The notes below the pieces were generated by a model. It saw nothing but the letters and a program-made list of their open reading frames with translations, had not been told where the DNA came from and searched no databases. This document shows positions 14,787-59,870 of a DNA stretch of 64,000 nt, in pieces. The stretch covers positions 28,050-92,049 of the forward strand of contig CAJOQM010000040.1 in NCBI GenBank assembly GCA_905236845.1. The letters are read 5' to 3'. The DNA is from an uncultured Lachnospiraceae bacterium. GTDB taxonomy: Bacteria > Bacillota > Clostridia > Lachnospirales > Lachnospiraceae. Both the position numbers and the translations under genes were made by a program. Within the stretch, counting starts at the first letter, position 1. Every line of letters begins with the position of its first letter.

Positions 14787-16709
14787 ATGGTATATAACAT
14801 AGATTTTGACATAGCGGGTGGCTTGCTTTCGCTTTTCATAATCTTTTATCTATACGACAGGAAGGGCCTTAAAAGCGTCTCAAACAGGTTCTTCCTTGCT
14901 CTTGTGCTGTCTGATTTCCTTGCGGCTTTGTCGGATATCTTTAGCTCAATACACAATTCGTATCCTTCCCCGGGAAGCTTGTGGAGGCAGGATGTATGGA
15001 ATTATATATATCTTGCATCCCATAACGCCATGCCTCTTATGCTGCTTTTATATATTCTGTTTGTGCTGGGCGTTGGAAACAGAATAAAGGAAAGATACTT
15101 TGTTCTTATTTGCCTGCCTTTGATACTCGATTATATTCTTCTTGCCCTGAATCCTTTTAATAAGGGCATATTTTACTATGACAAAACAGGCTTATATCTC
15201 CACGGACCCTTATTTACCGTGTTTTGGGTCGTGGCATTTTGCTACATGCTCGCCTCGATTGTTGTAATAATATACAACAGAAAGACTCTTCCGCCCAGAA
15301 AGCTCAATCCCCTTGGGCTCTTCATAAGTATATGCATAGTTACCGTTCTTATCCAGATTATGAATCCTTATGTCCTTATAGAGGTGTTTGCCCAGACTCT
15401 GGGACTAATGGGGATATTGTTTTCTATCGAAAATCAGGATGATGTCATAAATCATGTATCCGGAGCTTACAACAGATATGCTTTTTTGGCAAATATGGGA
15501 AGTTACGGGGAATTTAAATCCCGGATGTTTATTGCGGTAAAGCTTACGGATCTTGCGTATTACAATACATCCTTAGGCGTTGAGAATACGAATGCTTTGC
15601 AAAAACAAATAGCCGGATATCTTACGTCTCTTGATAACGGCTTTATGTGTTATGACATTGGAGCCGGGCATTTTGTGCTTGTGGAATCAAATTCAAAAAG
15701 TAAAAATACAAGGGAGCTTTCGGATAAGATTATAAAGCGCTTTGAAAGTCCCTGGGGCAGGGGCAGCGGCAAAATGATAGTCCCTGTGCAGATCTGTGAA
15801 GGAATCCTGGGTGAGGATATCCTGAATATGGAGGATTTTCTTCTAGTCCTGGATTCGGAATACGATGCCCGGGGTGACGTGAGAGTAGACGGGGCGACGA
15901 TTGTGGAAGCCCACAGACGCCGGATTCTTGTTGAGCGCTTGATAGACGAGGCTTTGGAAAACAACGGTTTTTCCGTATATTACCAGCCTATCTGGGACAG
16001 AAAATCCGGGACTTTCCATTCTGCGGAGGCTCTTGTACGCCTTATATCCGGAGAATACGGATTTATATCGCCTGAAGAATTTATCCCTATATCAGAACAA
16101 AACGGCAAGATCGCCGAAATCGGAGAATTCGTATTTGATGAAGTATGCAGATTTTATATGTCTGCAAAGCTTAATACTTTTGGCGTCGAATATATTGAGG
16201 TAAACCTTTCTGCCGTTCAATGCATGAACAGGGAGCTTCCCGATATTTTCGGGAAGATCCTCAAAAAATACGATATGGATCCATCAAGGATAAATCTTGA
16301 AATCACCGAATCCGCATCAGCCGGAAACACAGCTTTGCTTAAGGATAATGTTTTAGCCCTTAAAAATATGGGATTTTCTTTTTCTCTCGATGACTACGGT
16401 ACCGGATATTCAAACTATTCTTATATGTTTGATATGCCGTTTTCCATTATAAAGCTTGACAAAAGTATTCTCTGGAACGCAATGGACCCAAATACATCGC
16501 AAGGTGATGAGAAATTTAGGCGTCTGCTTTCCGATACAGTTTCCATGTTCAAAAATATCGGATATAACACTTTGGTTGAAGGTGTCGAAAGTGTCGATCA
16601 GAAGATTTACCTGGAAGATTTGGGGTGTGATTATTTTCAGGGATATTATTTCTCAAAACCCGTTCCCGAAAATGTTTTTTTTGATTTCATTAAGGCGGTG
16701 AATGCGTGA
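14787..16709 (+). CDS. Membrane-anchored EAL phosphodiesterase with degenerate GGDEF domain
   Basis: About 6 N-terminal TM helices. The GGDEF-like domain has its motif replaced (IGAGHFVLV). EAL motifs are intact (YYQPIW, EALVRL, NLEITES, FSLDDYGTGYSN, IKLDKSI, VEGVESVDQ, QGYYFSKP). Confidence 0.88.
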   Translation: MVYNIDFDIAGGLLSLFIIFYLYDRKGLKSVSNRFFLALVLSDFLAALSDIFSSIHNSYPSPGSLWRQDVWNYIYLASHNAMPLMLLLYILFVLGVGNRIKERYFVLICLPLILDYILLALNPFNKGIFYYDKTGLYLHGPLFTVFWVVAFCYMLASIVVIIYNRKTLPPRKLNPLGLFISICIVTVLIQIMNPYVLIEVFAQTLGLMGILFSIENQDDVINHVSGAYNRYAFLANMGSYGEFKSRMFIAVKLTDLAYYNTSLGVENTNALQKQIAGYLTSLDNGFMCYDIGAGHFVLVESNSKSKNTRELSDKIIKRFESPWGRGSGKMIVPVQICEGILGEDILNMEDFLLVLDSEYDARGDVRVDGATIVEAHRRRILVERLIDEALENNGFSVYYQPIWDRKSGTFHSAEALVRLISGEYGFISPEEFIPISEQNGKIAEIGEFVFDEVCRFYMSAKLNTFGVEYIEVNLSAVQCMNRELPDIFGKILKKYDMDPSRINLEITESASAGNTALLKDNVLALKNMGFSFSLDDYGTGYSNYSYMFDMPFSIIKLDKSILWNAMDPNTSQGDEKFRRLLSDTVSMFKNIGYNTLVEGVESVDQKIYLEDLGCDYFQGYYFSKPVPENVFFDFIKAVNA

Positions 16710-17797
16710 TGGTTACAGGTTATTATTTCGCTATGGCGATATTGTCATTTTTGTGTTCATGTTTATATTTCAGAAAATGGAGCAGACATTTTGAGCTTTG
16801 TTTTACCCTGATTTATCTGCTTATTCCTTTTGTGAATGTGGGATATCTTCTTATGGCCGTATCAAAGGATGTGGGAGAAGCCGTTACCGCCATAAAAATC
16901 ACGTATCTTGGCGGATGCTATCTTTTACTTGTGGTAATGATAAGTATTTTTACGCTTTGCAAGATAAAAATATATCGCGGAGTATATTTTGTCCTTACCA
17001 TGGCAAGCACAGCCATATATTCATGCGTTCTTACCATAGGCCATCTGGACATATTTTATAAAGGAGTGGAAATATATATAAAAAACAGATCCTCTTATAT
17101 CGTAAAGGATTACGGTCCCGTACACAGTCTTTTTTATATAATGATTTTCGTATATCTTGGTCTTTCCGTAGGGGGTATTATCTACGGAGCAGCCACAAAA
17201 AAGGAAGTCTCTTTAAGAAATGTTATGCTGATTACCGTTTCTGAAATAAGTACTGTCTTTGCTTTTTTCTTTGGTAGGGCTCTTACGGGAAACATTGAAT
17301 GGATACCGGCAGCATATTTACTGGACGGAATTATATATCTTCTTATCGTTGAGAGGCTTGCTCTTTATGATGTCGCAAGTGTTGTTTCGGAGACTTTGGT
17401 TGTGCATGGGAAAATCGGATTTTTGTCCTTTGATCTTGATAAAAATTATCTGGGGGCAAATGAAACAGCAAAGCTTCTTTTGCCTGATATCAAGGAAGTG
17501 AGAGTAGACAGACCCGTAAGATCGGGCAGACTTAAAGAGCTTACGGATAAATGGATAGAAGATTTTAAGAAAGATGAGCTTACAAGAGACCTTTTTTATG
17601 AAAACGGCGGCGTAATATATAAGATAAAAGTGGGATATCTTTTTGACAAAATGAAGATAAGGGGATACCGTATATCAATAGAAGACGATACGGAGCACCA
17701 GCAATATTTAAAGACAATATCCCAGTATAATAAAAACCTTCGCAGAGAAAATGATGAGAAAACAAAAATAATTGCGAAAATGAGAAATGACCTATGA
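16709..17797 (+). CDS. 7TM sensor-type membrane protein (HisKA_7TM-like) without output domain
   Basis: The ATG at 16709 overlaps the upstream TGA (TGATG). Seven hydrophobic helices are followed by an about 150-aa soluble tail ending in a coiled-coil-like segment. I see no kinase, GGDEF or EAL motifs. Confidence 0.6.
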   Translation: MVTGYYFAMAILSFLCSCLYFRKWSRHFELCFTLIYLLIPFVNVGYLLMAVSKDVGEAVTAIKITYLGGCYLLLVVMISIFTLCKIKIYRGVYFVLTMASTAIYSCVLTIGHLDIFYKGVEIYIKNRSSYIVKDYGPVHSLFYIMIFVYLGLSVGGIIYGAATKKEVSLRNVMLITVSEISTVFAFFFGRALTGNIEWIPAAYLLDGIIYLLIVERLALYDVASVVSETLVVHGKIGFLSFDLDKNYLGANETAKLLLPDIKEVRVDRPVRSGRLKELTDKWIEDFKKDELTRDLFYENGGVIYKIKVGYLFDKMKIRGYRISIEDDTEHQQYLKTISQYNKNLRRENDEKTKIIAKMRNDL

Positions 17798-17814: not shown

Positions 17815-17843
17815 TTGACTTTTAACCGCCTGTGTAGTATATT
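17815..17843 (+). promoter_or_regulatory. Sigma-A type promoter upstream of tRNA-Thr
   Basis: TTGACT (17815-17820), 17-nt spacer, TATATT (17838-17843), about 20 nt before the tRNA 5' end. Confidence 0.55.
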
Positions 17844-17862: not shown

Positions 17863-17935
17863 GCTGCTGTGGCTCAGTCGGTAGAGCGTCGCATTGGTAG
17901 TGCGGAGGTCACGGGTCCGATTCCCGTCAGCAGCT
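17863..17935 (+). tRNA. tRNA-Thr (anticodon GGT)
   Basis: Manual cloverleaf: acceptor GCTGCTG/CAGCAGC, D arm GCTC-AGTCGGTA-GAGC, anticodon arm TCGCA-TTGGTAG-TGCGG, T arm ACGGG-TCCGATT-CCCGT. No encoded CCA. Confidence 0.9.
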
Positions 17936-17945: not shown

Positions 17946-17972
17946 GGCTTCCCGTTGATCGGGGAGCCTTTG
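17946..17972 (+). terminator. Hairpin plus short T-run after tRNA-Thr
   Basis: GGCTTCCCG ttgat CGGGGAGCC (9 bp, one G-U) followed by TTTGC. It ends 18 nt before the ATG of the 1210-aa gene. Confidence 0.45.
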
Positions 17973-17990: not shown

Positions 17991-20900
17991 ATGAATAACC
18001 GCATCCTAAAGCTCGCTTCCGGCGACTTCAATGCCCCAAAACCTAAAATGAGCTTAAGCACCGACAGAATAGACGAGACTATTCGGGCGGGCTTGGTTTA
18101 TGAGGGCAATTTTTCCATAGAATCCGTAAACGGTGAACTGATGGAAGGCAATGTCTATTGCGACAACCATGGTATCACCATACTTACAAACTCTTTTTCC
18201 GGTCTTCGAACCACGATTTTTTATTCAGTAGATGCAAAGAAATTTAATCCGGGAGATTATATAAAGGGCAAAATATATCTTGTATGCTCCGGGGATGAGC
18301 TTGCTATACCTGCGTCTTTTAGCATAATGGCGGATTATCCCGGCATAGGAGATACAGTTATCCGTTCGCTTTCCGAATTTTACGACCTTTGCAGGGAGGA
18401 TTACGAAAAAGCCGCCATGGTTTTCGCATCTCCTTTGTTTAACAATATATTTGCCCATGACGAGGAAGCTATAAAGCTTATATATGAAGGTATTATCCGT
18501 AACGGCGGACCTACCGGCTATGCCATGGAGGAATTCCTTATTGCCTGCGGACAGAAGGAGCGCCTTGATTTTAGGGTTTCAGAAAACGAAAGAATGATCC
18601 GGGATGTCTCATCTGTCGTGAAAGATTATTTCCTTTTGTCAAAAGACGGCAAGGGGATGTTTGAGGTTGATATCAAAGCCCGGGGTGATTTTATCCGTCC
18701 CGAGAAATCTGTTGTCACAGACAAGGATTTTGTGGGTAATCAATGCGAGGTTATGTATTTTATTGAGCCTTCAAAGCTGCATTCGGGAAGAAATATAGGG
18801 GTTGTGACCGTCAGTTCTCCGTATTTTTCTTCGGAAGTACGCATTGAGGCGTATCTTTCCCCGGAATATGAGGCTGTGCCGGAGAATGCCGGTGTGCAAA
18901 AATCCGGAAAAAGGACTGCTGCCGTAAAGAAAAAGGTATCTGTCCGTAATACCGGAAAAAAAAGAGAGCGCATAAATCTTAGCAGGCTTATTTTAAATGA
19001 GCTTACTGGAGCGGAAAGATTGGGTGATTTTAAGGAGAGAGCCCTTAATCTTTGCGATAACATACTTTCGGAAAATTCCGAAGATCCATGGTATCTTTTG
19101 ATAAAAGCGCATATTTTTGTATATGACGGCGATATAGAAGGGGCAAAGGAGCTTTTTGCTCTTGCGGATACCAGAAGACTCGGGGAAGAGCCGGATCTTA
19201 TGGCGTATTCGGATTTGGTTAAATATCTTATTTATCCTACGACAAAGCTTGCAAGGGAATTGTCTGCGGAATTGCGTGAGCTTTCATCCAAATATCCTTC
19301 GGATAGCGCTATATTGTTTTCCCGATTGCAGCTTGACAGCGAGCTTTCCCGAAACAGTGCCCGGAAGCTTGATGTGATCCGTGATGGCTTTATGAGAGGG
19401 TCGTCATCTCCTTATGTATATCTTGAAGCCTGCCTGCTTTTCCAAAAAGAGCCTTATCTTATATCGGAGCTTTCGGAATTTGAGATAACCATACTTTCCT
19501 GGGGAGCCAGATACAATCTTATAACACGTGAAATAGCAGATCAGGTGTGCCGTTTTGCGTCTGCAAGACCTGTGTCATCAAACAGTCTTATCCGGCTTTT
19601 GATGCATATTGCAGATAAATATCCCTCAAAGGAATCCATAGGAGCTTTGTGTTCATATCTTGTGGAGAATCAGTCCGCTGGACGCAAATATGCTCCGTAT
19701 TATGCAAAGGGCATTGAGATGAAGGTTCGTATACCCGGGATATACGAGCTGTATCTTTTGTCGGAAGATACAAGGAATCTTTCCGGATTTACCCATGAAA
19801 TAAAGCTTTATTTTAGATATGCCCAGAATCTTCCCAACGACAAGGCTGCCATGCTTCTGTCCCAGATAGTAAAGGATGCGGATGAAAATCCGATAATGTA
19901 TTCCCAGTATCATCCCGTGCTTGATAATTTCTGCCGTAATATGCTTAAGGACAGGTTTGTGAACGATGATATGATCGGTCTTTATGAAGATTATTTTGTG
20001 CGCAACGGCTTTGATTCCCGGGAGGCATATGAATTTGCCGATATTTTGTATATGAGGAAGCTTATATTTGAAAATCCGGCTTCCATGCCAAAGCTTGTAG
20101 CTGTAAATTCAATGTTCTCCAAAGAGGAAATCTATCTCATAGACGGACCTGTGGTGTATATACCTTTCCCCTACGGAACAAATGTGCTTCTTTATGAGGA
20201 TGCATTGGGAAGACGCCATTCTTTTAATGATGACGTTGTTTCGCAGGATCTTTTTGCTGTATATAAATACAGACAAATTATTGCGGAAAAATGCCCGGAT
20301 CACCCTTATGTTCTTTTAAACAGCTTAAAAGTCCTTGATGAGGGGGGCGGGGAGATTTCGGAAGACGATTTTGCTTCGGTTTTTGAGCTTCTAAAAAGCG
20401 GAAGATTGAGAAATTCCGCCAAAAAAGACATACTTTCGGCACTTATTGAATGTATCTTTAAAGATGGAAGTGAAAATGTGCCCCGGATGCTTTTAGAGCT
20501 TGACACAAGTATTTTGGACACATCCCAAAACAATGATATTATAGAGCTTTGTATTAAATCCGGTCTTTATGATGAGGCGTTTAATCGCATCAAAAGCTAT
20601 GGCGTTATTTTCCCTGGAGCGCAAAAGCTGCTTTCTCTTTGTGATTATGCGGCGTCCGAACGCCCCGAGGATGAATTTACCCCTTATTTGCTTGCATATA
20701 CGGTAGACGGGGGCTATTATGATGATATTATCCTTAAATATCTGATAGAGCGCTTTGAAGGCTCTGTTAATTTTCTTTTAAAATTAAGGGAATATGCAGC
20801 AGGCTTTGATATAGATCCGGGAGTTGCGGATGCAAGGCTTCTTGAATATCTTATGTATACGGGGATATATGAAGCTGCGGGAGATGAGATATTTGAAAGC

Positions 20901-21623
20901 GCTGTAAGAGCCGGTCTTAACGACAATGTAAAGCATGCTTATATGACAGTCAGATCCAAGGAATATATCTTTGAAGACGAAGAAAATGTGGATTCCGTAT
21001 TTGCCCTTATGTATGCAAAGGAAAAAGTAAATATTTTTCTTTTGAATGATATCTGCAAGATTGCCCTTTTAAAATGGCTCATAAAGAGAAAGGATTCCGC
21101 AAAGCCCGCATATATTCTTATAGATGAGCTTATGGGGTATTTCGTCCGTAAGGGCATGTTCTTTGGTTTCTATAATGAGCTTGACAGCGCCATAAAAGGC
21201 AAATACAGGCTGCAGGAAATATCCGTTATAGAGCATATTACGATTCCGGGCGAGGGAAAACCCGTGTTTAAGTATCGCTACGAAAACAAAGATTCCGAAA
21301 AGGATGCGGATACGGAATATATGTCTATGGAGATGCGGATCATGATACCGGGGCTTTATTCCGTGGCGGTGCCTCTTTTCCCCGGAGAATCCGTGCAATA
21401 TTATATAGAAAGCGTAGGAGCGGATGAAAAAGACCGGGAATTTTCCGGAAGCGGCATAATGACAAAGGAAGCTGTTTATTATTCATCAGGGCACTCCCGG
21501 TACGACCTTATGCAGAATATGATTGCCGCTCTTAGCCTTAACGAAGAGGATGCATTTCTTAAGGCATATGAAGAAAACCGTAAATATGATATATTGACAA
21601 ATGAGCTTTTCAAGCTGAAATAA
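17991..21623 (+). CDS. Large (1210 aa) cytoplasmic protein of unknown function: N-terminal beta-sandwich-like modules, basic linker, long helical-repeat (TPR-like) body, C-terminal beta module
   Basis: AGGGAGG RBS. There is no signal peptide or TM and I recognise no catalytic motif. A Lys/Arg-rich linker (KSGKRTAAVKKKVSVRNTGKKRER) is present, and composition is alpha-helical over about aa 340-1080. Confidence 0.7.
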   Translation: MNNRILKLASGDFNAPKPKMSLSTDRIDETIRAGLVYEGNFSIESVNGELMEGNVYCDNHGITILTNSFSGLRTTIFYSVDAKKFNPGDYIKGKIYLVCSGDELAIPASFSIMADYPGIGDTVIRSLSEFYDLCREDYEKAAMVFASPLFNNIFAHDEEAIKLIYEGIIRNGGPTGYAMEEFLIACGQKERLDFRVSENERMIRDVSSVVKDYFLLSKDGKGMFEVDIKARGDFIRPEKSVVTDKDFVGNQCEVMYFIEPSKLHSGRNIGVVTVSSPYFSSEVRIEAYLSPEYEAVPENAGVQKSGKRTAAVKKKVSVRNTGKKRERINLSRLILNELTGAERLGDFKERALNLCDNILSENSEDPWYLLIKAHIFVYDGDIEGAKELFALADTRRLGEEPDLMAYSDLVKYLIYPTTKLARELSAELRELSSKYPSDSAILFSRLQLDSELSRNSARKLDVIRDGFMRGSSSPYVYLEACLLFQKEPYLISELSEFEITILSWGARYNLITREIADQVCRFASARPVSSNSLIRLLMHIADKYPSKESIGALCSYLVENQSAGRKYAPYYAKGIEMKVRIPGIYELYLLSEDTRNLSGFTHEIKLYFRYAQNLPNDKAAMLLSQIVKDADENPIMYSQYHPVLDNFCRNMLKDRFVNDDMIGLYEDYFVRNGFDSREAYEFADILYMRKLIFENPASMPKLVAVNSMFSKEEIYLIDGPVVYIPFPYGTNVLLYEDALGRRHSFNDDVVSQDLFAVYKYRQIIAEKCPDHPYVLLNSLKVLDEGGGEISEDDFASVFELLKSGRLRNSAKKDILSALIECIFKDGSENVPRMLLELDTSILDTSQNNDIIELCIKSGLYDEAFNRIKSYGVIFPGAQKLLSLCDYAASERPEDEFTPYLLAYTVDGGYYDDIILKYLIERFEGSVNFLLKLREYAAGFDIDPGVADARLLEYLMYTGIYEAAGDEIFESAVRAGLNDNVKHAYMTVRSKEYIFEDEENVDSVFALMYAKEKVNIFLLNDICKIALLKWLIKRKDSAKPAYILIDELMGYFVRKGMFFGFYNELDSAIKGKYRLQEISVIEHITIPGEGKPVFKYRYENKDSEKDADTEYMSMEMRIMIPGLYSVAVPLFPGESVQYYIESVGADEKDREFSGSGIMTKEAVYYSSGHSRYDLMQNMIAALSLNEEDAFLKAYEENRKYDILTNELFKLK

Positions 21624-21641
21624 CTGCCCCGGAGGATTGAA

Positions 21642-22877
21642 GTGGCTTACGAACTGGGTATAGATCTTAATAAAAACCATGCATTGGTGTCCATAGTGCT
21701 TCCAAACGAAGAGGAGCCGGTTACATTATCCATGACGGATGAGGATGATGTTTTTGTGATACCATATAATATCTGCCGCCTTTCCGACGGAAGGTGGGAG
21801 ATAGGATACCGTGCCGCAAATGAAAAGGACAGGGCTTTGTTTTTTGCGGATGATATTTTTGAAAAAGCGCTCGCACAAAAGACAGCTTCCATAGACGGGA
21901 AGCAATATTCTTATGTTGAGCTTTTTGGAATATACATGCAGAATATTTGCTCGTTTTTGCGTGTGAAATTCGGCTTTGACATATCCGACAGGGCTGTTGT
22001 TACTGTAAAGATAGTAAATGACGGGGTGCTTAAGCTTTTCGACGAAATAAAAAGCGCCCTGCCCATACAGGAAGTCCTGGTTCGGGATTTTAAGGAAACG
22101 TTTGCTGCGTATGTTATGGCGCAATCTCCCGGAATATACAATAAAGCAGTGTTTTTGTACGAATTTAACGGAAAGGATTTGACAAATCTTATACTATCTC
22201 TTGATACATCGTTGCGTCCGAATGTCGTAAAAGTCGAAGAGGATATAGAAAAGGGCTTTGGTGAGCGGCTTTTAAATGTAAAGAAAAGCGGCACCCAGAT
22301 GGATGTGGATTTCTTAAAAATCCTTGAAGAGGATTTCACATATATGGAAGCAAGCTCTGTATTCCTTACGGGAGACGGCTTTGAGGACAACTGGGCAAAA
22401 GAATCCGTTGAGTTTATATGCAAGGGCAGGAGGGCTTTTGCAGGGCAGAATCTTTTTTCCAAAGGCGCCTGCTATCTTTGCCTTGATATTGACAACGAAA
22501 ACAAATCCTATGTATATTTGGGAGAGTCCAAGACAAAGGCAAATCTATGTATAGAGATAAACAAAAATAAAAAAGCCGAAAAACTGACCCTGCTTTCCGC
22601 CGGTGAGAACTGGTACGAAACCGGGGCTTCCTACAGGATAGTCCTGGAGGAAGGAAACGAGCTTAATGTACTTTTGATTTCCCCTGACGGGACGCAAAGC
22701 CAGGAGAGGACTCTTACGCTTTCGGGCCTGCCCGAAAGACCAAAGCGTACCGGGAGGATTAATGTCAGTGCCAGGGCGCTTTCCGAGGATATGTTTATTT
22801 TGAATATAAAAGATCTTGGATTTGGGGAAATGTATCCTGCGTCGGAAAAAGAGTGGGAATACAAAATATCGCTTTAA
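21642..22877 (+). CDS. Degenerate Hsp70/actin (ASKHA)-fold protein with C-terminal beta-rich domain, unknown function
   Basis: GGAGG RBS and GTG start. Segments are co-linear with Hsp70 NBD motifs but lack catalytic residues: LGIDLNKNHA (vs GIDLGTTNS), AVVTVKIVND (vs AVITVPAYFND), DFKETFAAYV (vs NEPTAAALAY), FLYEFNGKDLTNLILSL (vs DLGGGTFDVSIL), VFLTGDGFED (vs VLVGGSTRIP). Confidence 0.6.
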   Translation: MAYELGIDLNKNHALVSIVLPNEEEPVTLSMTDEDDVFVIPYNICRLSDGRWEIGYRAANEKDRALFFADDIFEKALAQKTASIDGKQYSYVELFGIYMQNICSFLRVKFGFDISDRAVVTVKIVNDGVLKLFDEIKSALPIQEVLVRDFKETFAAYVMAQSPGIYNKAVFLYEFNGKDLTNLILSLDTSLRPNVVKVEEDIEKGFGERLLNVKKSGTQMDVDFLKILEEDFTYMEASSVFLTGDGFEDNWAKESVEFICKGRRAFAGQNLFSKGACYLCLDIDNENKSYVYLGESKTKANLCIEINKNKKAEKLTLLSAGENWYETGASYRIVLEEGNELNVLLISPDGTQSQERTLTLSGLPERPKRTGRINVSARALSEDMFILNIKDLGFGEMYPASEKEWEYKISL

Positions 22878-22893
22878 GGAGGAGATACAAGAT

Positions 22894-23718
22894 ATGAAAC
22901 TTCCTGTGCTTTGTAAGGGAGAAATCTCCGAAAAACCGTATATATTTAAAAGCATAAGCATAAGAGTTTTTTCTCTCGAAGAAATCTGCCGTGTCTTTAT
23001 GGAGCATACATCCATGCCTCCGGAGGATTTTTACTGCGTGGAATTATGCGATTATATAAGCCTTGAATTAAAGCTGAAGGATCTTGGCGATGCACTAAAG
23101 GAAAGCCTCATGAAAAAAACCGGGGGCCAGAGCGAATTTATCGTAAGAGTACTTATGTATTCCGGATATGCCGATAATGTTGAGACAGAAAAGATCCGTA
23201 AACAGATATCAATGCTTGAAAATCTGCCGCCTCTTTTGAGGATGAAAAGCTATGCAGACAGTATGGTTTCTTCCGGAAGGCTGTATGGCGCTTTTGATAT
23301 ATATAACGAGATATTGCCGAAGATAAAGGGAAAAGATCCTGCCCTTGAAGCTTCCATATATCATAACTGCGGTGTCGTGTATGCAAAGATGTTTTTCTTT
23401 GAAGCGGCTGCTGCGCAATTTAAGGAAGCATATGTGATTTCCCGGGATGAGGAGTCCTTAAGGGCGTACAAGGCGGCGGCTTTGTTTAGCGATGATGATA
23501 CGGAAAACCTTATTAAAGAGAGGATCATAACACCCAAGGATGCTGAAGAAATCGGCAGGATAAAGGAAAAAATCCTTGAAGGAGCCGCAGGAGATGTGGG
23601 AGATATAGATTTTGCAAATGACGCAAAGAGGATCGTTAAAGAGATAAAGAAGGATTATTTAAAGAGGATAGAAAATGGGATTATTTCAGCGGATATTTGG
23701 GGGCGGCAAAGCGCATAA
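22894..23718 (+). CDS. TPR-like helical protein of unknown function (274 aa)
   Basis: An AAGGAGGAG RBS lies 10 nt before the ATG at 22894. The ORF-track start at 22816 lies inside the upstream gene. TPR-like pairs occur around GRLYGAFDIYNEIL..EASIYHNCGVVYAKMFFFEAAAAQFKEAY. Confidence 0.6.
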   Translation: MKLPVLCKGEISEKPYIFKSISIRVFSLEEICRVFMEHTSMPPEDFYCVELCDYISLELKLKDLGDALKESLMKKTGGQSEFIVRVLMYSGYADNVETEKIRKQISMLENLPPLLRMKSYADSMVSSGRLYGAFDIYNEILPKIKGKDPALEASIYHNCGVVYAKMFFFEAAAAQFKEAYVISRDEESLRAYKAAALFSDDDTENLIKERIITPKDAEEIGRIKEKILEGAAGDVGDIDFANDAKRIVKEIKKDYLKRIENGIISADIWGRQSA

Positions 23719-24892
23719 AAAACCTGAGAGCGCACCTTTCCCCGAAGAAGAGATTTTTTACAACAAAAGAGATATTCCTCCCCGGGGAGCCATAGATATA
23801 TCCGCTTTCGAAAATATTGATTCGAGGCAGGAGATAATATCCTGCTGCGAACGCATTATGGCTCACTCTGCCACCATGAAGGACGAAAAGAATGAGTATG
23901 ACGTCGTAACGGGGTATCTGAACGATTCAAAACTTCTTGAGGAGATTCCGAAGGAGGAGCGAAGCGAGATAGACGCTACTGCATCAAGGATTCTTGAAAT
24001 ATCAAAACAAAGGGAGGGCATCCTTAACCAAAAGCAGCGCCTTCCCGAGGACAGGATAAATGATTTTGATGCGGCATTCGAGGATATTCCCTCACAGATA
24101 AACAATTTGCGTAACAATGAGGCGTATCAGTCTGTTGTAAAGCGTGACATGGAATATCTCGAAGGGGAAAAGGCGGCCTGGGCTGCTGATCTTCGAAGGA
24201 TAAAGCATGAAAACTCTCTTTTTGCAAAGATTGCCATTGCTGCGGCTGTTCTTTACGGTATATGGACCATAGCAAGTGTTTTTATAAAGATGCGCCTTGA
24301 TATTGACCTTACGGTCGTAAATATTATTGTAAGCGTGGTTGTGGTAGCTGTTGCTTTCGGGTCATTTATAAGGCTGTATTCAAACAGGCGGGGGAACCGT
24401 TATGCGGAAGCTGCCCTCAACAAGTCTGTTGTCATGCAAAACAGGATGAAGACAAAATATGTATCCGTTACAAATGCCGTAGATTATGTTTATGACAGAT
24501 ACGGGGTGCATTCGTCGTACGAGCTTAATTACCTCTGGGAGCAATACCTTTTGGCAAAAAAGGAGAGGGAAGCTGCCGCAAGAGCAGGAGACGAGCTTGA
24601 TTACCAAAAGCGTATCCTTGTGCGCCAGCTTCTTAAATTTGAACTTTCCGACCCCAGTATCTGGGTTAATCAATGCAGGGCGCTCATTGACCCCAGGGAG
24701 ATGGTAGAGGTCCGCCACAGGATGATAGAATCCCGCCAGAAGATAAGGGCGAGAATGTCTTCTGAGCTTGATGAGATCAAAAACGAAAGAAAAGATCTTG
24801 ATCTTTTGCTTTCTTCGGGGCACAAGTTTCCTCCCGAGATAAATCAGGTAATTGATGCCATAGACAGATTTATAGAAAGTCTTGAGCAATAG
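23675..24892 (+). CDS. Two-TM membrane protein with long cytoplasmic coiled-coil regions, unknown function
   Basis: An AGAGGA RBS precedes the ATG at 23675, which overlaps the upstream gene by 44 nt. The N-terminus is MGLFQRIFGGGK. Two adjacent hydrophobic helices (IAIAAAVLYGIWTIASVFI and VVNIIVSVVVVAVAFGSFI) are flanked by heptad-rich charged segments. Confidence 0.6.
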   Translation: MGLFQRIFGGGKAHKKPESAPFPEEEIFYNKRDIPPRGAIDISAFENIDSRQEIISCCERIMAHSATMKDEKNEYDVVTGYLNDSKLLEEIPKEERSEIDATASRILEISKQREGILNQKQRLPEDRINDFDAAFEDIPSQINNLRNNEAYQSVVKRDMEYLEGEKAAWAADLRRIKHENSLFAKIAIAAAVLYGIWTIASVFIKMRLDIDLTVVNIIVSVVVVAVAFGSFIRLYSNRRGNRYAEAALNKSVVMQNRMKTKYVSVTNAVDYVYDRYGVHSSYELNYLWEQYLLAKKEREAAARAGDELDYQKRILVRQLLKFELSDPSIWVNQCRALIDPREMVEVRHRMIESRQKIRARMSSELDEIKNERKDLDLLLSSGHKFPPEINQVIDAIDRFIESLEQ

Positions 24893-24901
24893 GAGAGTTT
24901 T

Positions 24902-26089
24902 ATGTTAGAAGGAAAAACAGTTATTTTGGGCGTAAGCGGAAGTATCGCCGCTTATAAAACCGCATATCTTGCCAGCGCTTTGGTCAAATTACACGCTGAT
25001 GTTCATGTGATCATGACAAAAAACGCCGAAAATTTTATTAATCCCATTACTTTTGAGACGCTTACTGGAAATAAATGCCTTACAGACACATTTGACAGGG
25101 ATTTTGAATTTGACGTAAAGCATGTGTCATTGGGGCAAAAGGCGGATATAATGATTATAGCTCCCGCAAGCGCAAATGTCATAGGAAAGATGGCGCACGG
25201 AATAGCGGATGATATGCTGACTACCACTGTTTTATCCGCAACCTGCCCTATTTATGTCTCTCCTGCCATGAATACAAAAATGTATGAAAAGGCAATCGTG
25301 CAGGAAAACCTGCAAAAATTAAAAGAAAATAAAATTAATGTAATAGAGCCTGCGTCCGGCTATCTTGCCTGCGGTGATACGGGGAAAGGCAAGATGCCCG
25401 AGCCTGATATTCTTAAAGAATACATACTTATGGAAATAGGAGCGGATAAAGACCTTGCGGGAAAGAATATCCTTATAAGCGCAGGTCCTACCCGGGAAGC
25501 AGTAGATCCCGTCCGGTTTATATCAAACCATTCAACGGGCAAGATGGGCTATGCTTTATCGCATGAAGCTGCCATGAGAGGGGCGAATGTTACTCTTGTT
25601 ACGGGACCTGTTTCCTTTGAGCCGCCTATCGGCATAGAGGTTATTAATGTAACTTCCGCTAAGGAAATGCATGACGGCTTGATGGATACCTATGACAAGG
25701 CGGATGCTGTCATAATGGCAGCTGCCGTAGCAGACTACAGGCCAAAGACCGTTTCTTCGGAGAAAATAAAGAAATCAGACGACAGCGCTGCTATAGAGCT
25801 TGAGCGCACAGACGATATCCTTATGGAAATGGGGCAGAAGAAGATGCATCAGATTCTTTGCGGATTTTCCATGGAAACGGAAAATGTCATTGAAAATTCC
25901 AGAGGGAAGCTTGAAAAGAAGAACCTTGATATGATAGTGGTAAACAACCTTCGCACAGAAGGGGCCGGCTTTGGCACCGATACAAATGTGGTCACGATCA
26001 TTGATAAAAACGGGGAAAATCCCCTTCCTAAAGCATCAAAACACGAAGTTTCAAAAAAAGTACTTGACCGCATTGCCCAAATGTTGTAA
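24902..26089 (+). CDS. coaBC: Bifunctional phosphopantothenoylcysteine decarboxylase / phosphopantothenate-cysteine ligase
   Basis: The N-terminal flavoprotein has ILGVSGSIAAYK and PAMN. The CoaB part has ISAGPTREAVDPVRFISNHSTGKMG and AAAVADYRP. Confidence 0.93.
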   Translation: MLEGKTVILGVSGSIAAYKTAYLASALVKLHADVHVIMTKNAENFINPITFETLTGNKCLTDTFDRDFEFDVKHVSLGQKADIMIIAPASANVIGKMAHGIADDMLTTTVLSATCPIYVSPAMNTKMYEKAIVQENLQKLKENKINVIEPASGYLACGDTGKGKMPEPDILKEYILMEIGADKDLAGKNILISAGPTREAVDPVRFISNHSTGKMGYALSHEAAMRGANVTLVTGPVSFEPPIGIEVINVTSAKEMHDGLMDTYDKADAVIMAAAVADYRPKTVSSEKIKKSDDSAAIELERTDDILMEMGQKKMHQILCGFSMETENVIENSRGKLEKKNLDMIVVNNLRTEGAGFGTDTNVVTIIDKNGENPLPKASKHEVSKKVLDRIAQML

Positions 26090-26148
26090 AATAGCCGTCG
26101 GCTGTTCAAACAGCCGTAACTAAATACCAGGCCGATTGGTATTTAAAT

Positions 26149-26222
26149 CGGGGTGTGGCGTAGTTTGGTAGCGCGCTTGACTGGGGGTCAAGAGGTCGTG
26201 GGTTCAAATCCCGTCACCCCGA
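26149..26222 (+). tRNA. tRNA-Pro (anticodon GGG)
   Basis: Manual cloverleaf: acceptor CGGGGTG/CACCCCG, D arm GCGT-AGTTTGGTA-GCGC, anticodon arm CTTGA-CTGGGGG-TCAAG (G37), T arm GTGGG-TTCAAAT-CCCGT. No encoded CCA. Confidence 0.88.
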
Positions 26223-26258
26223 TTGTTTTATTTAAAGCAGTCCTTTTGGGCGGCTTTT

Positions 26259-27858: not shown

Positions 27859-28932
27859 ATGCATATGCAGTGGTTCTATCCCCGATATATCGAAAAGAAC
27901 GAACGGGAAAACTTTTATCAGGAAAAATTTGAATATAACAAAAATGTGTTCAGGTGGGTTGTGATTTTACTTTCACTTTCGGAAATCACTTATTTTTTCA
28001 CTGACTGTCAGATATTCGGACGTTTTGCCTATGAGACGGTGATTCCCAGATTTATTGTCCTTGTGCCCCTTGCAATCTTTTTGGTATACGAAAAAATACA
28101 TAAAAGATATTTTGGGAATATAGTTTTCAGCTATATGCTCATGCATATTTGCATGTGGTGCACGATTTGGAGCATATGGTTCCTTCCCAACAGGGATTTT
28201 TCAAGGGAAGGCTTTCTTGCCATGCAGTTTGGATTCCTTGCCCTGGGAATTTCTTCTCCATATTATCTTTCCACGCTGCTTCACGCTCTGATGTTTGCAA
28301 ACCTTTTTGTTTCAAATACTTTTATTCATTATGAGCATTTTGATATGATACTTACCCTGGGGCTTCCTATATTTGCCGGGATTACACTTCTTTTAAAGGT
28401 TCTGGAGAATAATTATATCGATCATTATATGGATGAAAAGAAGCTGGTAGAGCTTTCTTTCCACGACCAGCTGACAGGTGTATACAGCCGTAATATCCTT
28501 GATAAGATACTTCTTCCCGGCACCATGCAGCTTGACTTTGCCTCTGCAAAGCGGGTATGGGTGCTTCTTTTTGATATAGATTATTTTAAGCAGGTTAATG
28601 ATAACTACGGTCATGAAACCGGAGATAAGGTTCTTGTGATGGTTTCTGGAATAATTAATGAAAATATAAAGGATACGGATTATTGCCTTCGCTGGGGCGG
28701 AGAAGAATTTGTCGTGTTTTTGCAGGATGCTTCAAAGGAATCTGCAGCTGATATTGCGGAAAATGTACGCATAGCCGTATCGGAAAGCAGAAAGCTTGAT
28801 TGCGCTATTACCATATCCTGCGGCATCGCCCAATATCTGGGAAATGATTATCACCAGGCTATAAACGATGCCGACAAGGCTCTTTACAGGGCAAAAGAAA
28901 ACGGAAGAAACCGGATTGAGATGAAAGGCTGA
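27859..28932 (+). CDS. Membrane-bound diguanylate cyclase (GGEEF)
   Basis: About 6 TM helices, then FHDQLTGVYSRN, FDIDYFKQVNDNYGH, RWGGEEFVVFL and YRAKENGRNR. Confidence 0.88.
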   Translation: MHMQWFYPRYIEKNERENFYQEKFEYNKNVFRWVVILLSLSEITYFFTDCQIFGRFAYETVIPRFIVLVPLAIFLVYEKIHKRYFGNIVFSYMLMHICMWCTIWSIWFLPNRDFSREGFLAMQFGFLALGISSPYYLSTLLHALMFANLFVSNTFIHYEHFDMILTLGLPIFAGITLLLKVLENNYIDHYMDEKKLVELSFHDQLTGVYSRNILDKILLPGTMQLDFASAKRVWVLLFDIDYFKQVNDNYGHETGDKVLVMVSGIINENIKDTDYCLRWGGEEFVVFLQDASKESAADIAENVRIAVSESRKLDCAITISCGIAQYLGNDYHQAINDADKALYRAKENGRNRIEMKG

Positions 28933-53115: not shown

Positions 53116-54054
53116 ATGGATTATGACAATACCGTGGAGCATACAATTGATTTAATCGTAGATGATAATACATGCGGTGTTCGCCTTGACAGGTTCATAA
53201 GCGATGGTGCGCCGGAGCTTTCCAGAAGCTATATAAAGGGGCTTGTATCCGAAGGAAAAGTCTTGGTAAACGGAAGAACGCAAAAGCCTTCGTATATAGT
53301 GGCGGCAGGAGATGAGATTACTGTAAACGTGCCGCCACCAGTTGATATTACACCTGAACCCGAAAATATTCCCCTTGATATTTTGTACGAAGATAATGAT
53401 ATTATTATCGTAAATAAGCCAAAGGGCATGGTAGTTCATCCTGCGGCGGGTCACAGCCACGGGACATTGGTAAATGCGCTTCTTTATCATTGCAAAGATT
53501 CCTTATCCGGCATAAACGGAATAATCCGCCCGGGGATTGTTCATCGCATAGATGCTGATACCACAGGATCCTTAATTGTATGCAAAAATGATATCGCCCA
53601 CAGAAATATAGCAGAGCAAATAGCAAAGCACAGCATAAACCGTATTTACGAGGGTTTTGTTTACGGAAATGTAAAAGAAGATACCGGACGTATAGATGAG
53701 CCCATAGGCCGTCACCCAAAGAACAGAAAGAAAATGGCGGTGGTCCGGGGCGGCAAGGAAGCAATTACGGAATACAGCGTATTGGAGCGCTTTGATTCGG
53801 GACGGGCCTGCCGTATGGAATTTAAGCTCTATACCGGCCGCACCCACCAGATCCGCGTGCATATGGCGCATATAGGGCATCCGCTTTTGGGAGATACGGT
53901 CTACGGTTCTGCAAAGAACCCGTATCATCTGCAAGGGCAGGCACTGCACGCACGCGTAATCGGTTTCGTTCATCCTGCCACAGGGGAATATATGGAGGTC
54001 GAGGCACCGGCACCGGAGTATTTTAAAGAGCTTTGCAAGAAACTTAAAGCATAA
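53116..54054 (+). CDS. rluD: 23S rRNA pseudouridine synthase, RluA family (RluD-like)
   Basis: N-terminal S4 domain (RLDRFI..), the catalytic HRIDADTTGSLIV, and GRTHQIRVHMAHIGHPLLGD. Confidence 0.92.
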   Translation: MDYDNTVEHTIDLIVDDNTCGVRLDRFISDGAPELSRSYIKGLVSEGKVLVNGRTQKPSYIVAAGDEITVNVPPPVDITPEPENIPLDILYEDNDIIIVNKPKGMVVHPAAGHSHGTLVNALLYHCKDSLSGINGIIRPGIVHRIDADTTGSLIVCKNDIAHRNIAEQIAKHSINRIYEGFVYGNVKEDTGRIDEPIGRHPKNRKKMAVVRGGKEAITEYSVLERFDSGRACRMEFKLYTGRTHQIRVHMAHIGHPLLGDTVYGSAKNPYHLQGQALHARVIGFVHPATGEYMEVEAPAPEYFKELCKKLKA

Positions 54055-54089
54055 TATAACAACCGACATTAAGGCTGGTATTAAACGCT

Positions 54090-55139
54090 TCAGCTATCAT
54101 ACAGCTTAACCCCCGCAGCCTTTCTTCTGTGTTCGTCCTCCATGGCCGCATAATGCTTGGCTGTGGTGTTTATGTCCGAGTGACCGAGAACGTCGGCCAC
54201 AAGGCGGATATCACCGGTATTTTTGTAAAGAGCGGTGCCGTAGGTGCTTCTCATCTTATGAGGTGAGATTTTCTTATCTGGTACGGCGACCTGACCGTAT
54301 TTTTTTACCATATTTTGGATGCTGCGAACTGACATACGCCGCTTTTGCCCGGAGAGGAAGAGGGCTTTTTCATCCTGTGACGTGCAATAAGCCGGGCGTT
54401 CATTTTCCATGTAATCTATGAGGGCTTCGTGCACAGCATCATTAAAATAAAGCTGTGCTATATTTCCACCTTTTCTGGTTACCTGAAATGATTTTTCTTT
54501 AAAGTTTATATCATCCGTATTAAGACCTGCGCACTCGGATACGCGAATGCCGGTATTAAGCAGCAGAGTAAGAATAGCTCTGTCACGCAGTCGGGTGCGG
54601 GTGCAAAAAGCTCTCTGACGTTCCGACCCCACGGCGCTTTCGTCTATTACCCTCATAAATTCATTTATTTCATCGTTATTAAGACGCACAATATCTTTCT
54701 TTGGCATCTTTTTGCGTTTGGCAGCGCCTATGGTAGGGTTGTTCTTCAGATAATGATGTGTCGTAGCAAATTCAAAATACCCCCTTAATGCCGCCATACG
54801 CCGGGCTATTCCCTTGTCCTCGTTCATATGGGTATATACGCCGTCGTTATACGAAAGATACCGTTGATATTCATTGATATCCTCAAAAGTCAGCTCTTCT
54901 AATAGCTCTGACGGTATGTCTTTTATGTCAAGATTCTTTGCCATGGGATTTTCTTCCTGAAGAAAAGAAAAAAAGGTAATAAGGTCATATGCATAGGAAA
55001 TTACCGTGTTTATCTGGCTAACCAGCTCCTTTTCATCCAGAAAAGGCTTCACATATACAGGAAGCTTCTTTTCGAGAATTTTAAGTTTTTTCTTTCTCTT
55101 CTCGCGAAGGGATTTTGTATATTCAGATACTTCAGCCAT
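54090..55139 (-). CDS. Tyrosine site-specific recombinase (XerC/XerD-like integrase family)
   Basis: RAILTLLLNTGIRVSE (Arg I), HKMRSTYGT (H-x-x-R) and LGHSDINTTAKHY (His and the catalytic Tyr). I prefer the ATG at 55139. The ORF track uses the GTG at 55148. Confidence 0.88.
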   Translation of the reverse strand: MAEVSEYTKSLREKRKKKLKILEKKLPVYVKPFLDEKELVSQINTVISYAYDLITFFSFLQEENPMAKNLDIKDIPSELLEELTFEDINEYQRYLSYNDGVYTHMNEDKGIARRMAALRGYFEFATTHHYLKNNPTIGAAKRKKMPKKDIVRLNNDEINEFMRVIDESAVGSERQRAFCTRTRLRDRAILTLLLNTGIRVSECAGLNTDDINFKEKSFQVTRKGGNIAQLYFNDAVHEALIDYMENERPAYCTSQDEKALFLSGQKRRMSVRSIQNMVKKYGQVAVPDKKISPHKMRSTYGTALYKNTGDIRLVADVLGHSDINTTAKHYAAMEDEHRRKAAGVKLYDS

Positions 55140-55410
55140 ATTTAACACCGTTGGAATATTTAGTGCCTTAGTCGCACAAAAACAACTTCATATTGTATAT
55201 TTTACTCCTTAAAGCACAAATATGCAAGTGTTATGTAAAGTTAAAATTATTTTTTATAAATATCAAATAGAAACTGTATTTTCTTCAAGATTCCTTAAAT
55301 ATAAATAAAATCATCTGATTTTACTTGATTTTATGGGCATATGATGATATGCTTACACTGAAGGAAAAGGATTTCAACATACTCGTTTGATTTAACACGG
55401 AGGTATTTTT

Positions 55411-56184
55411 ATGAGCGTATCAGGAGTAGGTTCTTCATCAAATATTTACAGTCAGCTTGCAAGCGGAAGCCAGCTTATGACGGCTGCCGACAATGCTGCA
55501 GGAGTAGCCATCACGGAGCAGATGGAAGCGCAGATAAACGGCTATGATGCAGGCACACAAAATCTGGAGTCGCAGCAGGACGCATTAAATATCGCAGACG
55601 GTGCGACCCAGTCCATAATTGATTACGTACAGCGTATAAGAGAACTGGCTTTGCAGGCATCAAACAGTGCGCTTATGAGCTCTTCCGATCTTGATGCGAT
55701 TCAGACGGAGATAGACCAGCTTAAGCAGGGCATTAGCGATGTAGCATCCCAGACTTCGTATAATACGAACAGTCTCCTGGATGAGGACACATCCTTTGAT
55801 GCCGCCACAAGTGCAAGCGGATCATCAAACACCATAAGCACGTACAATTCCACTTTAGAGGCTCTTGGTCTTGCGGATTTTGATGTGACGGGTGATTTTG
55901 ATATTTCGGTTCTTGATGATGCATTGGAGACTCTGACAAGCAGCCTTTCAAGCTATGGCGCACAGAGCAACGCCATTGACTATACTACGCTTTACAATTC
56001 AAGCACTGCTTACAACACGGCGTCGGCTCAAAGCCGTATAGAGGATCTTGACTATCCCCAGGCTGTATCCGAAAAGGAAAAGGAGAGACTCCTTCAGGCG
56101 TATACCTATATGGTTGAGAAGCACAAGAGAGAAGATAAAGAGAACGAAGTCAGGAATATTCTTGATACAAGCTGGGTTAAGTAA
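55411..56184 (+). CDS. Short, atypical flagellin homologue
   Basis: GGAGG RBS. N-domain TAADNAAGVAITEQMEAQINGYDAGTQNL..ALNIADGA..IQRIRELALQASN. C-domain YGAQSNAIDY..SAQSRIEDLDY. It has no variable domain. The extreme N- and C-terminal D0 segments are short and charged. Confidence 0.75.
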   Translation: MSVSGVGSSSNIYSQLASGSQLMTAADNAAGVAITEQMEAQINGYDAGTQNLESQQDALNIADGATQSIIDYVQRIRELALQASNSALMSSSDLDAIQTEIDQLKQGISDVASQTSYNTNSLLDEDTSFDAATSASGSSNTISTYNSTLEALGLADFDVTGDFDISVLDDALETLTSSLSSYGAQSNAIDYTTLYNSSTAYNTASAQSRIEDLDYPQAVSEKEKERLLQAYTYMVEKHKREDKENEVRNILDTSWVK

Positions 56185-56187
56185 GGA

Positions 56188-57219: not shown

Positions 57220-57283
57220 GGTTTTATTTTATACATAATATGATAGAATAACAAGTGCAAAATATAGATAAAGGAGAATTGCT

Positions 57284-58477: not shown

Positions 58478-58488
58478 GGGATTTTTTG
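58463..58488 (+). terminator. Rho-independent terminator of hydF
   Basis: AATCCCC (58463-58469) pairs with GGGGATT (58478-58484), running into TTTTTT. The stop codon sits in the loop. Confidence 0.6.
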
Positions 58489-58532
58489 CTATTTCTTTTC
58501 GTTAAAGCAGGATTTAACGCATAAATAGATGC

Positions 58533-58548
58533 CGCTCTTACCCGGTTT
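58533..58548. repeat. Left copy of the 16-bp direct repeat CGCTCTTACCCGGTTT
   Basis: Identical to 60943-60958. The pair brackets the Fic gene and the IS30 remnant. Confidence 0.6.
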
Positions 58549-59789: not shown

Positions 59790-59870
59790 GTTAAACCTCC
59801 TTAGTTTAATGAATAGGATATTATTAGAACAAATAATTTTTAGTCTAAAAAAAACAATATTTTTAGATTA

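Follow-up and report, generated by a model that had tools for sequence, protein, structure and literature searches.

In the genome of an uncultured Lachnospiraceae bacterium we identified a conserved cassette of four genes, here called ORF1 to ORF4 (ORF, open reading frame), whose products we tentatively regard as components of a membrane-tethered scaffold complex without enzymatic function, centred on a clamp of pseudo-Hsp70 and TPR (tetratricopeptide repeat) proteins, a reading that we consider possible and by no means assured. The cassette occupies positions 17991–24892 of the window, by which we mean the whole 64,000-nucleotide stretch of DNA that was analysed (positions 28,050 to 92,049 of the forward strand of contig CAJOQM010000040.1, GenBank assembly GCA_905236845.1). 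All four genes lie on the + strand: ORF1 (17991–21623, ATG start, 1210 aa), ORF2 (21642–22877, GTG start, 411 aa), ORF3 (22894–23718, ATG start, 274 aa) and ORF4 (23675–24892, ATG start, 405 aa). ORF1 and ORF2 are separated by 18 nt and ORF2 and ORF3 by 16 nt, ORF3 and ORF4 overlap by 44 nt, and each gene is preceded by a Shine-Dalgarno (SD) sequence (GGGAGG, GGAGG, AAGGAGG and AGAGGA, respectively). An earlier reading of this DNA, made without database searches (the sequence-only reading), had described a tightly coupled four-gene operon with an SD sequence before each gene, and the coordinates, gaps and SD sequences were as it had claimed. The longest mechanical frame of ORF3 begins at a TTG at position 22816; the start chosen here, the ATG at 22894, was also picked by independent gene calls on identical metagenome contigs. 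The same reading had proposed an outline of the four proteins which agrees with the results detailed below: ORF1 has beta-sandwiches at both ends of an approximately 700-aa helical-repeat body (AlphaFold2 (AF2) model and Foldseek), ORF2 has an Hsp70/actin fold with degenerate nucleotide-binding motifs and a beta-rich C-terminal domain (AF2, Foldseek and profile alignments), ORF3 is TPR-like (family profile) and ORF4 has two transmembrane (TM) helices between long helical arms (sequence and family alignment).

A profile search with ORF2 homologues matched at least 577 species-level genomes, and the locus counts given here refer to the best 80 of these at least 577 matches, in which gene order was read by tblastn and judged wherever the contig was long enough. 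The order ORF1-ORF2-ORF3-ORF4, colinear and on one strand, was found in 80 of the 80 related loci, each from a different species, at a protein identity of only 23–38% (23–35% between genera) and with median gaps of 19.5, 14 and 10 nt. Co-conservation of the genes in other genomes had been named by the sequence-only reading as a test of its own proposal, and all 80 loci keep all four. That these are four unrelated, chance-adjacent or mis-called hypothetical ORFs, an explanation for which the absence of functional annotation speaks and nothing else, is refuted by this colinearity at low identity, by the short gaps that are kept, by natural fusions of ORF2 with ORF3, by Pfam families for two of the proteins and by conserved columns in each family, and we leave it practically no probability. 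The linkage to coaBC, which starts 9 nt after ORF4 and into which the sequence-only reading had let the system run, did not hold: coaBC was linked to the cassette in none of the 80 other loci; the linkage is peculiar to the lineage of the source genome, and coaBC lies outside the unit. The flanks elsewhere consist of variable housekeeping genes, gltD-like, gltX and uvrD-like genes among them. The names on the best 80 loci are Lachnospiraceae or unclassified, carriers include Roseburia, Agathobacter, Butyrivibrio, Pseudobutyrivibrio, Lachnobacterium, Kineothrix and rumen ‘Eubacterium’, and among the matches listed every taxonomically informative record title is that of a member of the Lachnospiraceae; as far as we have seen, the four-gene unit is confined to this family. 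In an exhaustive profile search the ORF2 family comprised 1863 representatives (clusters at 50% identity) at E ≤ 1e-3 and 693 at E ≤ 1e-30.

ORF2 passes the Pfam model DUF5716_C (PF18980; E = 3e-83, 280 bits against a cut-off of 34.7, residues 119–411), and none of the Pfam models for HSP70, MreB and FtsA matched it at E ≤ 0.1. An AF2 model computed from 49 homologues reached a predicted local distance difference test score (pLDDT) of 90 and a predicted template modelling score (pTM) of 0.83. The top 50 matches of this model in a Foldseek search of the PDB were all members of the Hsp70 superfamily (DnaK, BiP, Hsc70, Hsp110 and Ssz1); nearly all contain both a nucleotide-binding domain (NBD) and a substrate-binding domain (SBD), and they span the whole query with E-values down to 6e-22 (DnaK). 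Profile comparisons pointed in the same direction: the ORF2 family profile reached DnaK at E = 0.016, pairing GIDLNDxYAMIS of ORF2 with GIDLGTTNSVVS of DnaK and aligning LELTDLPeRPdRTTRLRITAkPlSDDKIeIeIKDLGFG with the hallmark segment of the DnaK SBD-beta, and when aligned by hhalign with the DnaK of a related Lachnospiraceae locus (L041:3045–4928) it matched end to end with P = 1.3e-4. In the model, residues 1 to about 288 (21642–22505, + strand) form a reduced Hsp70-type NBD of approximately 290 residues with one helix (aa 217–234) at the position of subdomain IIB, and residues from about 289 to 411 (22506–22877, + strand) form an SBD-beta-like sandwich; the chain stops at the last SBD-beta strand (aa 404–410), without an alpha-helical lid. 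ORF2 thus shares with canonical Hsp70s (DnaK, HscA and HscC) the plan of an actin-fold NBD, a linker and an SBD-beta. Of the sequence elements of these proteins it has retained GIDL at the start, LxG(D)G as adenosine motif, the helix of connect-2 and the hallmark stretch of the SBD-beta. It differs from them in the missing lid, in the single helix that stands for subdomain IIB and in the loss of the GTT and DxGGG loops and of K70. Tested against what defines an Hsp70, the protein has the two-domain fold and lacks the full set of ATPase elements, subdomain IIB and the lid, and a match to the Pfam HSP70 model. As judged from the model and the alignments, ORF2 is a true, very divergent Hsp70 derivative with an NBD core and an SBD-beta. 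It superposes better on docked, ATP-like DnaK (root-mean-square deviation approximately 8–11 Å) than on undocked, ADP-bound states (approximately 15–20 Å), and the model hints that it may be locked in a compact conformation.

We next consider the nucleotide-binding motifs, counted as alignment columns over 49 sequences of the ORF2 family. D8 is kept in 48 of the 49, and 46 have an acidic residue (E152) that coincides with or adjoins the E171 position; the adenosine motif is partly kept as an invariant LxGDGF, and in the connect-2 segment, CxGRRAFxGxNLFSKGACYAA, 11 of 21 positions are invariant and 5 more are conserved at 90% or above. The phosphate-1 GTT loop, in contrast, has given way to N-D-x, Leu occupies the K70 position in 39/49, and the phosphate-2 DxGGG loop is lost (E/D174, at the D194 position, in 31/49; G177 in 14/49). 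Because the phosphate-loop motifs are gone, we infer that ATPase activity has probably been lost. These observations bear directly on an alternative explanation, namely that the cassette encodes an active specialised chaperone in which ORF2 binds and hydrolyses nucleotide in a non-canonical manner, ORF3 serves as a TPR co-chaperone and a client, possibly the giant ORF1 or else membrane proteins brought to ORF4, is folded, held or assembled. The descent of ORF2 from a true Hsp70, the conservation of its SBD-beta and interdomain linker region and the retained D8, E152 and LxGDGF would fit such a chaperone, as would the weak likeness of ORF3 to TPR co-chaperones (Tah1, E about 0.02) and the fact that a few loci have htpG or a dnaK operon close to the cassette: htpG lies directly upstream in Butyrivibrio sp. 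NC3005 (L088, 1–5919) and no more than 10 kb away in 5 of the 80 loci (L027, L054, L055, L063 and L067), and hrcA-grpE-dnaK-dnaJ lies directly upstream in L041 (1311–6266). However, both phosphate loops and K70 are gone throughout the family, IIB and the lid are missing, and chaperone genes neighbour the cassette in just about 7 of 81 loci. Neither a J-domain protein nor a nucleotide-exchange factor was found in the cassette, as hhalign comparisons of the ORF1, ORF3 and ORF4 profiles with real DnaJ and GrpE gave probabilities of at most 0.7% and the three families contain no conserved HPD column. In addition, ORF2 carries no EEVD-type acidic tail as a TPR ligand, its C-terminal columns reading K-x-W-x-Y-T/V-M/I-x-x (consensus KxWxYTMxx). 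We therefore consider an active chaperone doubtful.

ORF3 consists of a conserved N-terminal domain (aa 1–110), TPR repeats (aa ~120–190) and a helical tail (22894–23718, + strand). Taken alone, the ORF3 protein of the window matched only TPR_12, at E = 0.069, whereas among 40 homologues 37 matched TPR_2 (best E = 1.6e-7), and the family profile matched consensus TPR proteins over residues ~120–190, centred on WHNLGxAYxxLFLFEEAxxCFxKAY. The TPR repeats are thus genuine; in the N-terminal domain the conserved positions are C7, E29, E30 and Y92. Fusions between neighbouring genes link ORF3 to ORF2: 8 of the best 150 ORF2 representatives, of 684–765 aa, consist of a full-length ORF2 followed by a full-length ORF3, the ORF3 part being recognised by its hidden Markov model at E-values of 1e-51 to 1e-75. 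One such fusion (WP_026504008.1) comes from the cultured Butyrivibrio sp. NC3005, where the fusion gene is flanked by homologues of ORF1 (1217 aa) and ORF4 (422 aa; E = 6.6e-87), and another belongs to a cluster of 17 members, one of which is present on 38 contigs. Since the two genes have merged in several lineages, with their order preserved, these fusions provide Rosetta-stone evidence that ORF2 and ORF3 are most probably physical partners. Such a pair is reminiscent of the TPR co-chaperones Hop, CHIP, Tah1 and SGT, which likewise devote a short TPR module to an Hsp70-family partner, but it differs from them in the ORF2 end without EEVD and in that ORF3 has approximately two TPR motifs and a conserved N-domain of its own, and in that the genes sometimes fuse.

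The largest product, ORF1, scored above the Pfam gathering thresholds of both models of DUF5717 (PF18984 and PF18983): DUF5717_N with E = 2e-181 and 605 bits against a cut-off of 25, and the C-terminal model DUF5717 with E = 1e-54 and 186 bits against 25. Only 11 homologues were found for modelling, even by profile, and the AF2 model of the first 1200 residues, computed from 12 sequences, has a mean pLDDT of 79.7 and a pTM of 0.40. The protein (all features on the + strand) begins with a tail of 19 residues (aa 1–19, 17991–18047; consensus MRKRIxQLARGKFEYxxP), which is strongly conserved among 77 sequences though its pLDDT is 40–57, and which is a candidate partner-binding peptide. The tail is followed by tandem immunoglobulin (Ig)-like (ASH/PapD-like) beta-sandwiches (aa 20–113 and 193–289, 18048–18857, from DSSP of the model), a module with many invariant residues and with a helical insert between the sandwiches (aa 127–185, within 18048–18857). 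A basic, Lys/Arg-rich disordered linker (aa 291–321, 18861–18953; pLDDT 30–39, low alignment occupancy) leads into a first TPR-like alpha-solenoid (aa 319–686, 18945–20048; AF2 and Foldseek), a small central beta-domain (aa 688–753, 20052–20249; AF2), a second alpha-solenoid (aa 761–1071, 20271–21203; AF2) and, at the end, a C-terminal beta-sandwich (aa 1077–1158) with two helices (aa 1170–1199; together 21219–21587). Among the 77 sequences conservation is highest in the N-terminal module, solenoid 1 and the C-terminal sandwich, where the block aa 1121–1140 is among the best conserved, and lowest in solenoid 2.

Foldseek matches of the ORF1 model fell into two lengths. Those of approximately 290 columns, which from their length probably belong to the tandem-sandwich module, were ciliary central-pair proteins, the SPD-2 domain of CEP192, 2qsv of P. 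gingivalis and Z1Z2 of titin; those of 800–950 columns were TPR-like superhelices, belonging to Ski3, Ctr9, IFT-A, Naa15, PPR10 and, from C. jejuni, the flagellar scaffold 9hmf_K. Because the TM-scores were only 0.07–0.13 (at 9–12% identity), these matches are read as similarity of fold class in the model and not as membership of a family. With the same reservation, ORF1 resembles Ski3, Ctr9, IFT-A, adaptins and other coat proteins, and PflA/PflB-type scaffolds in its mixture of solenoid and beta-domains, and differs from them in having no beta-propeller. No enzyme fold was among the Foldseek matches of ORF1, all of which were folds of scaffold type. A signal peptide was not found when its sequence was read, and the protein is therefore predicted to be cytoplasmic. 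A Pfam Clathrin/VPS repeat in solenoid 2 (E = 0.0065, 16.6 bits against a cut-off of 29.6) was sub-threshold and was not used. In some metagenome contigs ORF1 appears split into proteins of 803–822 aa and 405 aa, an appearance created by runs of N at gaps in the scaffolds. A G-rich run within ORF1, GAGGGGGGCGGGGAG (window 20340–20355), coincides with runs of N or contig ends in L081, L083 and L084, three independent metagenome assemblies of one organism, and the runs of N at this site thus give rise to false calls of a ‘split’ gene.

ORF4 has no Pfam family that covers it. Its two TM helices (TM1, aa 182–204, 24218–24286; TM2, aa 212–234, 24308–24376; both + strand) are separated by a loop of 8 residues, and are preceded by a helical N-terminal arm and followed by a conserved helical C-terminal arm. 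As basic residues border both TM helices on their N- and C-terminal sides, the topology is predicted to be N-in/C-in, with both helical arms cytoplasmic. At its very N-terminus the family conserves M-[G]-[FL]-[FLW] and, after it, a stretch of basic residues; the tail, MGLFQRIFGGGKAHKK in the protein of the window (+ strand), is hydrophobic and then polybasic across the family. Matches of the ORF4 profile to keratin coiled coils (E ~0.03) and to DUF2207_C, the latter touched by 9 of 37 homologues through the TM region, were set aside as reflecting composition and not homology. One homologue (L009, 12105–15005) has 967 aa, owing to a C-terminal extension of approximately 560 aa that is highly charged and of low complexity.

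No recognisable enzyme domain was detected in any of the four products by Pfam or Foldseek, and an assembly or anchoring machine, as opposed to an enzyme pathway, appears to be the more plausible nature of the system. We propose that the four proteins would form one membrane-tethered structural complex in which the Hsp70-like/TPR pair would not cycle as a chaperone and would instead act permanently as a clamp on peptides. Its targets would be the conserved basic-hydrophobic tails at the N-termini of ORF1 (MRKRIxQLARGKFEY), of ORF4 (MGFF followed by KKKK) or of both, and its grip would fasten the giant scaffold ORF1 to the cytoplasmic face of the membrane; a role in the organisation of the vegetative cell, for example in positioning, in morphogenesis or as a scaffold of membrane domains, would then be likely. 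DnaK prefers peptides with a hydrophobic core flanked by basic residues, and the composition of the ORF1 and ORF4 tails is similar. Two known systems provide precedents for parts of this proposal. In the ribosome-associated complex (RAC) formed by Ssz1 and Zuo1, Ssz1 is an Hsp70 of impaired ATPase activity that serves as a stable subunit, its SBD holding a segment of the partner as a pseudo-substrate, and RAC structures (6sr6 and 7x3k) were among the Foldseek matches of ORF2. RAC, however, is eukaryotic and ribosome-bound, its partner is a J-protein and the NBD of Ssz1 is full-size, and the homology of ORF2 and Ssz1 is here limited to the shared Hsp70 fold. In PilM-PilN an actin-fold protein holds the N-terminal tail of its membrane partner, which is the same logic of tethering; in PilM-PilN and FtsA an actin-superfamily protein stands beside a membrane protein with a short conserved cytoplasmic N-terminal motif, as in ORF4. 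In contrast to these, ORF2 is of the Hsp70 type (all of the top 50 Foldseek matches), ORF4 is a two-TM hairpin, and pilus or division genes are not linked to the cassette. Where canonical Hsp70s work with a J-protein and GrpE, the companions of ORF2 are ORF3 with its TPR repeats, the giant ORF1 and the hairpin protein ORF4.

Several points weigh against this proposal of a clamped scaffold. The retained D8, E152 and LxGDGF of ORF2 make an unusual mode of nucleotide binding possible. For the gripping of the tails, the evidence consists of their conservation and their DnaK-peptide-like composition, and among the four proteins the ORF2-ORF3 fusions are the one direct support for binding. As the ORF1 model was built from 12 sequences and has a pTM of 0.40, its single domains are credible whereas their mutual arrangement is unreliable. 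Finally, our view of the phyletic range comes from 80 matches, the best of at least 577. A bolder form of the proposal is that the cassette encodes a new bacterial cell-organising machine, in which a solenoid/Ig scaffold would form a membrane-anchored, coat- or cytoskeleton-like lattice and a clamp derived from an Hsp70 paralogue would attach it; we regard this as speculative, although its probability is far from negligible. If true, it would represent a new bacterial use of the Hsp70 fold and a Lachnospiraceae-specific determinant of how the cell is built, be it in shape, in polarity or in membrane domains.

The sequences upstream of ORF1 suggest when the cassette is expressed. Of 75 other loci, 69 have a site of the form TTGNNN-16-18-TATA[AC]T located 24–164 nt before ORF1, against 1.3 in shuffled sequences, and this site commonly reads AAATAGTTTATAAT, whereas patterns for sigma-D, E, F/G, K and H gave 0–4 matches in the 75 loci, which is the background level. 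As the loci are related these counts are not independent; the pattern nonetheless spans several genera. Most loci are thus predicted to have a vegetative, sigma-A-type promoter of their own. In 34 of the 80 loci (L012, L017, L020, L022 and similar) a divergent aminotransferase-like gene lies upstream, with its start within approximately 15 nt of the -10 box of the cassette: the CAT...CTCC of this gene abuts TAGTTTATAAT, about 60–130 nt upstream of ORF1, and the two promoters therefore overlap back to back. In L078 a tandem repeat resembling (ACAGAA)n stands in place of the usual promoter, 130 nt upstream of ORF1. Overall, the colinear loci, the short gaps that are kept, the sigma-A-type promoter and the variable flanks indicate that the cassette is a self-contained, vegetatively expressed chromosomal operon. 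A scan for terminators after ORF4 did not discriminate: it gave hits in 25 of 75 loci, and in 22 of 76 when applied within the coding sequence of ORF1.

The promoter also bears on the idea that the cassette encodes a stage- or organelle-specific apparatus, such as an accessory complex of sporulation, flagellar placement or cell division. Many carriers, among Roseburia, Agathobacter, Butyrivibrio and Pseudobutyrivibrio, are curved, flagellated rods, and polar and flagellar systems typically employ TPR scaffolds and landmark proteins with a hairpin or a TM coiled coil; ORF1 matched the C. jejuni flagellar motor scaffold 9hmf_K, and of the 80 loci 19 have a CotJC-like and 11 a CotJB-like gene downstream. 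Against this stand the sigma-A-type promoter and the background level of the stage-specific sigma patterns, the lack of any consistent linkage to flagellar, division or sporulation genes across the 80 loci, and the fact that 9hmf_K is one generic TPR match of many, so that we consider such an apparatus unlikely.

The rapid divergence of the proteins could also be that of a conflict or anti-phage system, with ORF1 as the sensor, the Hsp70-like/TPR pair as a switch and ORF4 as an effector of abortive infection. In addition to the identity of 23–35% between genera, the combination of a large repeat-type sensor with a small membrane protein resembles some defence systems, and the genes are present in five GenBank records named ‘Bacteriophage sp.’. 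These records are, however, unverified virome scaffolds. The three of the five that were opened (MT835486.1, MT835719.1 and MT835988.1; L085–L087), from a human faecal virome, each contain the full cassette, and in MT835486.1 (L085), the sole record with its flanks scanned, the neighbours encode valyl-tRNA synthetase, MgsA, MoxR and glycosyltransferases, so that this record is probably contaminating bacterial chromosome and a phage origin was rejected. Furthermore, PADLOC returned no family (0) and PHROGs none, a plasmid collection gave no match, no nuclease, protease, TIR or other effector domain was found by Pfam or Foldseek, and each locus has a single site amid housekeeping genes, with all informative titles from one bacterial family. 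The impression of the sequence-only reading that the composition is native and free of mobile-element signatures accords with these plasmid and phage searches and with a GC content of 0.41–0.44 over the four-gene region, equal to that of the remainder of the window. A defence system is thus a very improbable explanation.

With regard to novelty, the sequence-only reading had been unable to assign any of the four proteins, which stands in so far as none belongs to a characterised functional family (the sensitive searches that it had itself suggested, here of NCBIfam, PADLOC, PHROGs and PDB sequences, gave nothing useful) and falls in so far as ORF1 and ORF2 are members of the Pfam families DUF5717 and DUF5716. 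These two are known solely as domains of unknown function, ORF3 and ORF4 have no Pfam family of their own, and in the literature library searched we found nothing relevant on the DUF5716 and DUF5717 families or on Hsp70-like proteins in Lachnospiraceae. The folds themselves are known (Hsp70, TPR and Ig), and the module is of the Hsp70/TPR type. The Lachnospiraceae, with Roseburia, Agathobacter rectalis and Butyrivibrio in their ranks, count among the most abundant producers of butyrate in the human gut and the rumen, and their cell biology is almost unexplored. A module present in at least 577 species-level genomes, with a housekeeping-type promoter and approximately 2300 codons devoted to non-enzymatic proteins, is likely to be physiologically important, and if ORF2 is a static clamp, bacteria would possess in it an equivalent of the structural pseudo-Hsp70s exemplified by Ssz1. 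Four components, their domain boundaries, two candidate ligand peptides, natural fusions and cultured carrier strains, among them Butyrivibrio sp. NC3005, Pseudobutyrivibrio xylanivorans DSM 14809, Kineothrix alysoides KNHs209 and Agathobacter sp., are now defined.

In the source genome itself the cassette lies between two tRNA genes, the only features returned by an Rfam scan. A tRNA-Thr(GGU) gene (17863–17935, + strand) ends 55 nt 5′ of ORF1, with a weak hairpin (17949–17966) between the two, and a tRNA-Pro(GGG) gene is located 3′ of coaBC (within window 24880–26223). The coaBC gene (24902–26089, + strand, ATG start, 395 aa; TIGR00521, E = 7e-142), a neighbour outside the conserved module, has an SD sequence, AGGAGA, that overlaps the stop codon of ORF4. 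Between 17815 and 17990 no dedicated promoter of ORF1 was found, the sole good candidate being a sigma-70-type promoter-like site upstream of tRNA-Thr (TTGACT-17-TATATT, 17815–17843, + strand). The cassette of the source genome may thus be co-transcribed with tRNA-Thr, and appears from these sites to borrow its promoter and to continue into coaBC. Genes of cyclic di-GMP signalling flank the region, with a 7TM-EAL protein encoded upstream (within 14787–17797) and a GGDEF protein downstream (27859–28932); a gene for a 7TM-only protein (HisKA_7TM), in which no output domain was recognised, overlaps the 7TM-EAL gene by 4 nt. Further along the window, GC skew turns from positive to negative near 54–60 kb, the GC content falls to 0.316 at 58–60 kb and gene orientation is mixed (window 54000–64000); together these features could mark a replication-terminus-like switch or an island.

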